DNA of 32,000 nt from contig NJBF01000003.1 of assembly GCA_003144275.1 (NCBI GenBank), positions 1-32,000 on the forward strand, read 5' to 3'. Within the stretch, counting starts at the first letter, position 1. The number at the start of each line of letters is the position of its first letter. This stretch comes from Candidatus Heimdallarchaeota archaeon B3_Heim. Its GTDB lineage: Archaea; Asgardarchaeota; Heimdallarchaeia; Hodarchaeales; Hodarchaeaceae. Positions 7,913-10,583 of this stretch are shown here, piece after piece. A program made the position numbers and the translations under genes. The notes under the pieces are model-generated. The model saw nothing but the letters and a program-made list of their open reading frames with translations, did not search any database and had not been told where the DNA came from.

Positions 7913-8024
7913 ATTGATTACCAAGTTTTTCTCTCTGAATCACATTTCAGAACGAAGATAATTCATAAATATGAAAAGGTTTTCAATTAAAAACGTAACA
8001 TTCATCAATATTGGAGGAAAAAAA

Positions 8025-8654
8025 ATGAACGTTCAATACCAATCCCTATCAAATGAAGTCAAGTTTATACGAAAGGGTAGTAAAGAACGCGGCTTCTTCT
8101 TTGGGGTAATGGGCTTATTGTTTCAAATTATATTCTTTTGGGGATATTGGAGTTTTCTAGACGAAACTGGTCCATGGTCAATCTTTTGGCTTACCATTAT
8201 TAATAGTGAGTTGTTTCCTTTTACTTTTATTTTGTTTGTTTTTGGGGCAGGCTGTATATTAGTGGCTATTCGTGAATTTGGTTGGCAAGAGTCCTTAATC
8301 ATTAAAACAAATCTTTTTCAGGACATCTCAGGAATACGGAAAGAAATAAAGTTATTTCGGTGGATACGCACCACAGATATTCTTAAAAATCAAATTGTGA
8401 CTCTTCGGTTACATTCGATTCTGCTAGACCAATTTGGGGTTAACAAATCATACAGAATTGAAGTAGATTATCAAGAAAAAGTAACTTCACCAATAGAAAC
8501 CATAATATTATTTAAAGACCATGAAGATAAAACACAATCATCCCTAGGCTTAATAGAGAAAATTCATGATATTTTATCATTATCTAAGGAAATTGAAAAA
8601 ACAGAATCAGTTACTTTTCAATTGGAAGGGAAAAAAAGGGTTGATAATAGCTAG
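8025..8654 (+). CDS. Hypothetical membrane protein (two N-terminal TM helices plus a soluble C-terminal domain)
   Basis: GGAGG at 8013-8017 precedes ATG 8025 (the ORF track starts at 7971). Two hydrophobic segments are followed by a beta-rich soluble region. Confidence 0.7.
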   Translation: MNVQYQSLSNEVKFIRKGSKERGFFFGVMGLLFQIIFFWGYWSFLDETGPWSIFWLTIINSELFPFTFILFVFGAGCILVAIREFGWQESLIIKTNLFQDISGIRKEIKLFRWIRTTDILKNQIVTLRLHSILLDQFGVNKSYRIEVDYQEKVTSPIETIILFKDHEDKTQSSLGLIEKIHDILSLSKEIEKTESVTFQLEGKKRVDNS

Positions 8655-8866
8655 CGAATAAATGGATAGATAGAGACATTTATGGACACATAGGACGATG
8701 AGGAAGTTTAGGACAGAATACCGAAAAACGAAAGAAACGGGGACAGAACATAAATTCTAGGAATGACTGGGGTTTAATTTGTCTCATTGGATTAGAGATA
8801 AAACGCTGGGCTAGTTAACCTATTAACGATAAAATGAGGGAAAGACACCCTGTTTGATTTGGAATG

Positions 8867-8901
8867 TAGGGGTTAATGATTTTATAAAGAAGGAACCCCT
8901 A
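8867..8901 (+). promoter_or_regulatory. TATA box (TTTATAAA, 8881-8888) bracketed by an 8-bp inverted repeat
   Basis: TAGGGGTT (8867-8874) and AACCCCTA (8894-8901) are exact reverse complements with a 19-nt spacer containing TTTATAAA, about 25 nt upstream of the GC-rich element at 8911. Confidence 0.5.
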
Positions 8902-8905
8902 ATAA

Positions 8906-9000
8906 TTCCTGTCGCCGAGAGTTCCGCGGAGACATTAAATGCCTGTGGAGAGGCGGTAAGACCTGTGTACCAACAGGCACGCGTCAAGGAAGCAGGAAGA
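8906..9000 (+). ncRNA. TnpB-associated omegaRNA-like scaffold (IS607/IS200-IS605 right-end remnant), orphan
   Basis: GTCGCCGAGAGTTCCGCGGAGACATTAAATGCCTGTGGAGAGGCGGTAAGACC...GGCACGCGTCAAGGAAGCAGGAA matches the conserved tnpB 3' end pattern as I recall it, and translates VAESSAETLNACGEAVRP. Several stems are visible. No tnpB ORF lies upstream. Confidence 0.65.
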
Positions 9001-9119
9001 ATAGCACCAATATCGACTGGTGATAATTAGCATCATTAACATTAAGATCTTAATTGTCCCTCAATGTCCGATTTGGGTAAGTCTTTCAGAACGGAAAAAG
9101 AGAATAATTCTAAGCTGAC

Positions 9120-10583
9120 TTAGAAATATTCAGAAGGATCACGCATTCCGCGCTTTTTGACATCTTTACGAGAAAGAGTTTTAAACTCATTTCGTAATTC
9201 TGCTGGTAATCTGCTTGGTTTTTTAAACCCTTCAACCGAATCTTTGGCATAAGAGTAAATAAAGGTGCGGAAAGCCACTTTCATGGGCATAGTAACTACA
9301 TTGTAGGGAAGTGTTCCAAGGAAAACGAATATTACCGCAAACACAATTCCATACGTTAATTCTTGAGTTACAGCAAATCCTAGACTGAATCCTATTCCGA
9401 TCCAAAGCAGTGAATTTACAACGGCAAAGATAAATGTCGTCAATCCAAAACCTGTTTCACCAACGAGGACATCGACTAGTGCTCCCCAGGTAGTTTTGGC
9501 CGAATCTTTGATCGAATCTCCTAGGCCTTTCTTATTTTGCACGATACTCACCAAGGTAAAATAGTTCAAAAACATCCAGATTGCACCAATAATGGAGATC
9601 AGGAGACTTGCAATAGCAGCGAATATTAAACCACCAATTGCTGCACCAGCATTTCTACCACCAGTACGTGTTGTTTGACCACGAGCAGCACCTGTAAAAA
9701 TCTGCATGATTATTTTTACCGTCGCCATCGCAAAAGCAAATTTGAGAATGATCGGAAATACTTGACGGACATCTTTCATAGCAGATCCCAAATCAGGATC
9801 TAATCCTCTATACCAATCACTGGCATAAGAGATAACTCCAGCAGATAGGCTGTAATATACACCTAGGTACACGATTAAATAGAAATATTCAAAGATAATA
9901 GCCATTATTAGACCAGGATAACTTAATTCTGTTTCGCCTAAAGCATTAGTAACCTCAAAGAGAGAGTAGATTTTGAGAAAGCCAAAAAGCATGAAAAAAC
10001 CCGTTATTATGGAATATATTCCCAGTAATAAGGGCATAGCTAAGACCGCTTTTTCATCGAGCACAAGTTGAGCCGAAAATTCAACAAATTTTCCACTGCG
10101 TTCAATCACTCGAAACTTCCAGATGACAAATGCTAAAAGTAGAAATCCAAAGCCAGCAATAAACATTCCCATCATCGAAGCGTCTAATTGTTCATCCCCA
10201 GGCATGATTATTCCTCCTCCAATCATAAGAACACCTACTACCATCATTAGTACGGGAAAGAGAACTGAAACAAATATTGTGACCTGTTTAGCAACTTTAC
10301 TCATGATCCATAAAATTACAAATGCTAGAATGACAGTCACAACTAGAAACGTTAAGATAAACGCGATTAAGAGCGGTAGAAAGTCTAAAGAAATAGGGAC
10401 TAAAACTTTCAATGCTTCAGACATTTCAGCTAATATACTAGCATTTTCAGGCTTAACAATAAAATCGTAAAATGCATACGCCCCGAAAACATAGAGGGCA
10501 ACTACAACAATCAAATAAAGCCACGTGGGCGTACTTGAAAAATTAGTTTTAATATTGGGTTTTTTATAATTTGAGACACTCAT
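9120..10583 (-). CDS. Choline transporter-like (SLC44/CTL/Pns1) family membrane protein, putative
   Basis: 487 aa, about 10 TM. Segment order and motifs parallel Pns1/CTL: MSKVAKQV, WKFRVIERSGKFV, SDWY, LGSAMKDV, FLNYFTLVSIVQNKKGLGDSIKDS, FRTFIYSYAKD. Confidence 0.6.
   Translation of the reverse strand: MSVSNYKKPNIKTNFSSTPTWLYLIVVVALYVFGAYAFYDFIVKPENASILAEMSEALKVLVPISLDFLPLLIAFILTFLVVTVILAFVILWIMSKVAKQVTIFVSVLFPVLMMVVGVLMIGGGIIMPGDEQLDASMMGMFIAGFGFLLLAFVIWKFRVIERSGKFVEFSAQLVLDEKAVLAMPLLLGIYSIITGFFMLFGFLKIYSLFEVTNALGETELSYPGLIMAIIFEYFYLIVYLGVYYSLSAGVISYASDWYRGLDPDLGSAMKDVRQVFPIILKFAFAMATVKIIMQIFTGAARGQTTRTGGRNAGAAIGGLIFAAIASLLISIIGAIWMFLNYFTLVSIVQNKKGLGDSIKDSAKTTWGALVDVLVGETGFGLTTFIFAVVNSLLWIGIGFSLGFAVTQELTYGIVFAVIFVFLGTLPYNVVTMPMKVAFRTFIYSYAKDSVEGFKKPSRLPAELRNEFKTLSRKDVKKRGMRDPSEYF

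Follow-up and report, generated by a model that had tools for sequence, protein, structure and literature searches.

The window, by which we mean the whole 32,000-nt stretch of DNA analysed here (positions 1-32000 of contig C82 in a genome of 3.95 Mb, 103 contigs and 94% completeness), contains at positions 8641-9094 on the + strand a 454-bp non-autonomous element that carries an omegaRNA scaffold and has no tnpB gene. This element is probably a MITE/PATE-like 'standalone omegaRNA' derivative of an ISDra2-like, tnpB-only IS family in an Asgard host of the Heimdall/Hod group, the RNA of which would be used in trans by a resident TnpB for homing. The mini-element lives as a mobile parasite and probably relies on full copies in the genome for its nuclease.

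The omegaRNA scaffold and its fold

The stretch had been flagged in an earlier note as a GC-rich island, and its GC content was indeed 0.53 at 8900-8999, above the values of 0.25-0.41 in the surrounding stretches (8500-8850 and 9000-9400). The same note had compared the + strand frame behind a TAA, which is present at 8830, with a TnpB C-terminal tail. This frame translates ...PVAESSAETLNACGEAVRP... / ...PVAESSAETLNACGEAVRPVYQQARVKEAGRIAP..., and tblastn with the 430-aa TnpB of the genome aligned residues 378-428 with window 8875-9027 at 55% identity, in agreement with the comparison. A tnpB body is missing upstream of the flagged stretch, and the only reading frame within the element was a 58-aa relic, with no Pfam match and no protein-coding gene found.

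A covariance model was constructed from 13 tnpB-attached scaffolds, eight from the same genome and five from related MAGs, with the window copy excluded. This model, matched from its position 1 to 171, recovered window 8907-9094 with 136.3 bits (E 7e-35), and the omegaRNA scaffold was placed at 8907-9094 on the + strand on the basis of this match together with the retained pairs and structure controls described below. The scaffold takes in the relic of the TnpB C-terminal frame (to 9030) plus the right end of the element, and its conservation begins at GTCGCC, position 8911. The proposal that this is a TnpB-type omegaRNA without its own nuclease gene is thus upheld by an end-to-end match to a model of tnpB-linked scaffolds. 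Investigation of Rfam showed no family at the gathering threshold, and a permissive search gave only matches at chance level (E 5-10).

The covariance model found 19 places in the genome. Eight are linked to tnpB, comprising six complete elements and two copies cut by contig ends, and 11 are not, among them one copy at a contig edge, a degenerate copy (C93) and a fragment (C92). The description of the RNA as having no tnpB was consequently correct for the locus, where no body lies upstream, and incorrect for the genome, with its eight tnpB-linked copies. All 19 copies stop at ...TAAGTCTTTCAGAACGG, with unrelated flanks immediately afterwards (window base 9094), and the final ~24 nt of the scaffold are nearly invariant across all copies. 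Overall, the resident tnpB-linked scaffolds share 73-75% identity with the window scaffold, rising to ~85% over the initial 105-110 nt. In the remaining tnpB-less lineages, whose deletion junctions differ, ~184 nt of scaffold starting at GTCGCC are likewise retained.

An RNAalifold consensus from 17 copies contained six helices. On this consensus 96.1% of cells pair, compared to 36-48% after a shift of the partners by 1-3 columns. Six consensus pairs show changes on both sides. The window copy retains 33 of the 35 consensus pairs and the degenerate copy C93 retains 28. The two pairs that fail in the window copy lie in the variable right-end hairpin, the site of a lineage-specific segment of ~17 extra nucleotides (approximately 9027-9043, + strand; gap columns 123-139 of alignment A1), which is common to all four copies of the window's MITE lineage. 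The stem CCTGT/ACAGG (8962-8966/8973-8977), which had been noticed from the window alone, belongs to the consensus fold and is a both-sides change relative to CCTGC/GCAGG in other copies. With 33 of 35 pairs kept and compensation of this kind, the window copy does not display the uncompensated breaking of pairs relative to IS copies that the earlier note had weighed against its proposal. The fold of the 5' domain is not unique, in that the RNAalifold consensus of the model differs from that of alignment A1.

The mobile element, its ends and its relatives

In a genome of the same genus (G013), with flank identity of 95-99%, window position 8640 is joined precisely to 9095. This empty site reads ...GGAAGGGAAAAAAAGGG/AAAAAGAGAATAATTCTAAG..., or ...AAAGGG/AAAAAGAGAAT... 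at the junction itself, and the occupied site in the window reads ...AAAGGG/TTGATAAT...CAGAACGG/AAAAAG.... The arrangement is GGG/TTG...ACGG/AAAAA when occupied versus GGG/AAAAA when empty; GG stands at each junction as well as in the target. From the precise empty site, the whole element, TTGATAAT...CAGAACGG, measures 454 bp and lacks a target duplication; since GG is common to both junctions, its boundaries may move by up to 2 nt.

Comparison with G013 also showed what the insertion did to the host ORF at 7971-8654 (+ strand). The last 10 codons of this 227-aa ORF were swapped out, and its C-terminus is now RVDNS (stop), the native form in G013 being REKENNSKLT (stop). A Pfam search assigned the ORF to no family. 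In its native form the ORF ended in a stop codon overlapping that of the convergent gene at 9120-10583, which has a weak Choline_transpo match just below the Pfam threshold. The sole metatranscriptome run that matched any of the stretch covers 9244-9468, in this neighbouring gene. At the other end of the window, positions 1-228 belong to another repeat, within which the contig begins; copies that are 74-98% identical occur on C8, C61, C69, C44, C57, C75, C96 and C102, and several of them (C61, C69, C44 and C57) adjoin another TnpB family, only distantly related, with ~23% identity to the main TnpB of this genome.

Besides the copy in the window, the deletion junction recurs, each time between unrelated flanks, at one further place in the same genome (C96) and in two other genomes (G013:C174 and G004:C55). 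Sharing of one deletion junction by four unrelated loci in three genomes demonstrates that the deleted form itself transposes. Metagenome contigs from cold seep and marine sediment span the left junction, indicating that it is not an assembly artefact. The sister copy on C96 (C96:23417-25528, its insert included) matches the window element in two parts, one of 238 nt with 91% identity and one of 228 nt with 96% identity, and is interrupted, at the equivalent of window 8870/8871, by a nested 1652-bp full-length IS. The site that received it corresponds to an internal GGGG followed by TTAATGATTTTATAAAG in the window (8868-8890, + strand), as identified by the C96 comparison. The guide of the nested IS, TTTGATGATTTTATAAAG, is identical to what follows GGGG inside the MITE copies of G013 and G004. 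Two seed positions are different in the window copy, which is hence a near-target of the omegaRNA of this nested IS.

Among the MITE copies compared, the scaffold is 89-97% identical versus 83-89% for the left end. This higher conservation, together with retention of the scaffold in other tnpB-less lineages, suggests from sequence comparison that the RNA matters, although scaffold conservation could partly reflect recent copying rather than selection. A tree of 17 scaffolds gave no support for independent origins of the MITE lineages and is compatible with a single origin. No full-length parent with the left end of this lineage or with its 17-nt right-end insert was found among the 31 genomes searched.

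The left part of the element (8641-8910, + strand), consisting of the IS left end and the tnpB 5' region, is joined directly to the scaffold; alignment and BLAST show it to be homologous to the corresponding ends of six full-length IS copies. As the element consists of the left end and the scaffold/right end only, the tnpB body has been deleted, and this internal deletion left the tnpB promoter region directly before the scaffold. A TATA-box candidate, TTTTATAAAG (8880-8889, + strand), is an A/T-rich octamer that every left end has at this point of the alignment and lies ~21 nt upstream of the start of scaffold conservation at 8911; it may well represent an archaeal TATA box and promoter. The idea that the scaffold had been given a promoter therefore stands in so far as a TATA-like element lies just upstream of it; this promoter is not new, being the one that precedes tnpB in the IS itself.

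RGACA repeats occur in the left part at 8674, 8684, 8711 and 8741 (8674-8745, + strand), in the opposite orientation to the TGTCC motifs at 9055 and 9065. By motif count the left part holds three GGACA, a number equalled by 0.16% of shuffles. A pair of RGACA in the left end and the pair of TGTCC (9055-9069), each with a spacing of 10 nt, form imperfect inverted subterminal repeats. Judged by their motifs, the RGACA/TGTCC repeats are possibly binding sites of a transposase that binds double-stranded DNA.

The insertion habit of the family has traits of two transposase types. As in IS200/IS605-like elements, insertion is 3' of a short motif (RGGG in 20 of 20 cases) and without target duplication, and as in IS607-like elements a GG core is shared by both junctions and the target. 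The genome, at 94% completeness, holds neither a Y1 HUH transposase (PF01797) nor an IS607-type serine TnpA, and no tnpA was found upstream of tnpB in six related loci, all of which are tnpB-only. PF01797 is present in two of 22 genomes of the genus, unlinked to a scaffold; lacking a linked scaffold, these two Y1 TnpA loci were not accepted as the mobilising partner. A serine recombinase at C2:6891-7451 was likewise rejected as an IS607 TnpA, having an N-terminal catalytic domain of resolvase/invertase type and being unlinked. The predicted DNA folds of the element ends were no better than those of shuffles.

The full element is 1652 bp long and is composed of the left end, the 430-aa TnpB and the scaffold/right end, and the nearest tnpB-linked copy (C82:50642-52296) lies 42 kb away on the same contig. 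The resident TnpB has HTH_OrfB_IS605, OrfB_IS605 and Cas12f1-like zinc-ribbon domains and aligns end to end with ISDra2 TnpB (8H1J/8EXA; E about 1e-47). Its closest relatives, at 77-88% identity, are TnpBs of Heimdall-, Hod- and Promethearchaeota MAGs. The catalytic positions are D, E and D (in ALDKG, VTEDL and DRDQNAA), so that the resident TnpBs are not TldR-like, and the suggestion of a TldR-like partner was dropped. The need for a TnpB acting in trans, also put forward earlier, agrees with an element that has no nuclease of its own in a genome with eight tnpB-linked copies. In one related locus (L023:2664-3142, equal to G007:C39, of the Promethearchaeota MAG DZ2M.341), the tnpB tail consists of a partial scaffold of 107 nt, ~210 nt of other sequence and a full scaffold, and the TnpB frame is lengthened from 430 to 537 aa, possibly by a further nested insertion.

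Guide, TAM and the proposed homing cycle

Because all 19 genomic copies end at the equivalent of window 9094, the guide begins at 9095. The earlier note had sought it within 9000-9060; the boundary given by the genomic copies places that interval inside the scaffold, and the hairpin CACCA/TGGTG, which the note had mentioned as lying in that interval, falls in the variable part of the scaffold. The predicted guide, AAAAAGAGAATAATTCTAAG (9095-9114, + strand), was delimited by the divergence of the flanks in all 19 copies, and by analogy with ISDra2 TnpB a guide length of 16-20 nt is predicted. On the left side, GGG closes each of the 20 left-end flanks examined, the base before it being A in 15 and G in five, and the corresponding TAM and insertion target in the window is AGGG (8637-8640, + strand). 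The predicted guide is also the sequence right after AAGGG in the empty site of G013. Taken at the level of sequence, a guide match beside AGGG in an empty site is the canonical homing target of a TnpB. In the occupied site the right end provides ACGG in place of AGGG.

A search of the genome with the guide returned 31 non-self matches at up to two mismatches versus ~18 for shuffled guides. The single near-match flanked by GGG was CGGG plus an exact 14 nt at C75:9853-9869, in an ORF for a 416-aa membrane protein. The C75 protein shows no homology to the window ORF, and the match was therefore treated as probably due to chance rather than as a real second target: it is A-rich, stands by itself and is at chance level after 19 guides.

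The proposed pathway begins with two events documented by the comparison of copies and sites: an internal deletion took out the tnpB body and brought the left end up against the beginning of the scaffold/right end, and the deleted form inserted 3' of AGGG without target duplication. The left-end promoter would then give rise to an omegaRNA transcript of ~200 nt, with the guide, from 9095 onward, supplied by the adjacent host DNA. A TnpB from a full copy elsewhere in the genome would load the RNA of the mini-element in trans; as the resident scaffolds are only 73-75% identical, cross-compatibility of the TnpB is assumed. The TnpB-RNA complex would cut the empty site, AGGG followed by AAAAAGAGAAT..., after excision or in element-free chromosomes, the predicted cleavage target being the AGGG-flanked AAAAAGAGAATAATTC, and recombinational repair after the cut would bring the element back (homing/retention). 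The occupied site would be protected because the right end gives ACGG and not AGGG.

Alternative readings and relation to known systems

A mobile MITE with a non-functional RNA would also explain the transposition of the deleted form, if the scaffold were kept for its overlap with right-end DNA required by the transposase or if the copies were young. We regard this as unlikely, although several observations would suit it: the only metatranscriptome match lies outside the element, just four copies of the lineage are known, a close full-length parent was not found in the 31 genomes, the tree lacks evidence of independent MITE-lineage origins, and the TGTCC repeats, which resemble transposase-binding sites, lie inside the scaffold. 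However, the tnpB-less lineages all keep ~184 nt from GTCGCC, far beyond the terminal part with TGTCC; pairs distant from the end have been retained by compensatory changes; and the deletion places the TATA-like box ~21 nt before the scaffold start. In-situ decay, the null hypothesis of the earlier note, would make the element a dead IS remnant after loss of tnpB at this locus, in line with the missing tnpB body and the stop at 8830. It is contradicted by the identical deletion junction at four unrelated loci in three genomes, by the intact ends and precise empty site, and by the retention of 33/35 pairs against 28/35 in the truly degenerate C93. The deleted form has itself transposed, and simple decay is accordingly highly improbable.

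Equally hard to credit is domestication, the reading that the earlier note had favoured, in which a trans-acting guide RNA would work for the host, in TldR-like regulation or in defence, together with a protein of the TnpB family from another locus. The promoter-plus-scaffold layout and the one TAM-like CGGG with its 14-nt exact guide match in the C75 membrane-protein gene speak for it, but that match is within chance expectation for the 19 guides examined, the guide is plain flanking DNA, and the resident TnpBs have kept their catalytic residues. Moreover, the element is a complete mini-transposon with intact ends, the right one formed by the scaffold, and the insertion is polymorphic between genomes of the same genus, the G013 site being empty and sister copies being present at unrelated loci in three genomes. 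A more far-reaching possibility is that the guide-only cassettes, which outnumber the nuclease genes, serve the resident TnpBs as a library of guides dispersed over the genome, with the window guide directing TnpB binding or cleavage in trans at the host gene on C75; this is very improbable, and if it were true it would represent an early step towards host-directed RNA-guided regulation. The reading we prefer remains that of a mobile mini-element with an omegaRNA used in trans by a resident TnpB.

Elements of this kind have been described. Standalone omegaRNAs that are mobilized without an effector or transposase, in genomes that also hold effector loci, worked in trans with compatible effectors (Altae-Tran 2021, as far as summarized in PMC10691335). 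In the terms of that summary, the window locus is alike in having no nuclease or transposase, in the effector copies elsewhere in its genome and in taking its guide from just outside the right end; it differs in its Asgard host, in that the nearest resident tnpB-linked scaffolds are ~75% identical, and in that function in trans is here a proposal. PATEs often encode omegaRNAs that need a TnpB made elsewhere (Meers et al. 2023, 10.1101/2023.03.14.532601). Like the window element, the PATE-like IS200/IS605 elements of Geobacillus stearothermophilus in that study are gene-less, keep both ends, often carry an omegaRNA, presumably receive TnpA and TnpB in trans and follow the same homing/retention logic. 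Unlike them, the window element resides in a genome without a Y1 TnpA, has weak end hairpins, inverted RGACA/TGTCC repeats and a shared GG, and retains the whole tnpB promoter region within its 270-nt left end.

ISDra2 TnpB with its right-end RNA (8H1J, 8EXA) is similar in the full-length alignment and D/E/D residues of the resident TnpB, and in a scaffold that starts in the same C-terminal coding tail (VA..S.TLNA.G..V.PAS). The element in the window is distinguished from ISDra2 by the absence of tnpB and tnpA and by its TAM, AGGG. The TAM of ISDra2 is TTGAT. Elements of the IS607 family, which have a serine TnpA, reportedly insert at GG. The tnpB elements of that family share with the window element a GG that recurs at the two junctions and the empty site, the lack of target duplication and the repeated short end motifs, the difference being that this genome has no IS607-type TnpA.

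Taken together, the window element fits a published kind, that of PATEs and standalone omegaRNAs employed in trans, and its Asgard host is what is particular. An orphan guide RNA is here an ordinary outcome of transposon miniaturization, and a false lead towards domestication is thereby removed. The presence across the genus of a tnpB-only family with its transposase missing raises a small question of its own. The TnpB, omegaRNA and TAM form a defined triple suited to biochemical testing. The Heimdall/Hod group is the lineage closest to eukaryotes, where relatives of TnpB (Fanzors) also occur, and with an exact empty site, the TAM AGGG, the boundary at 9094 and the guide, TnpB guide-only mini-elements are documented as mobile, probably active parasites in Asgard archaea of this group.
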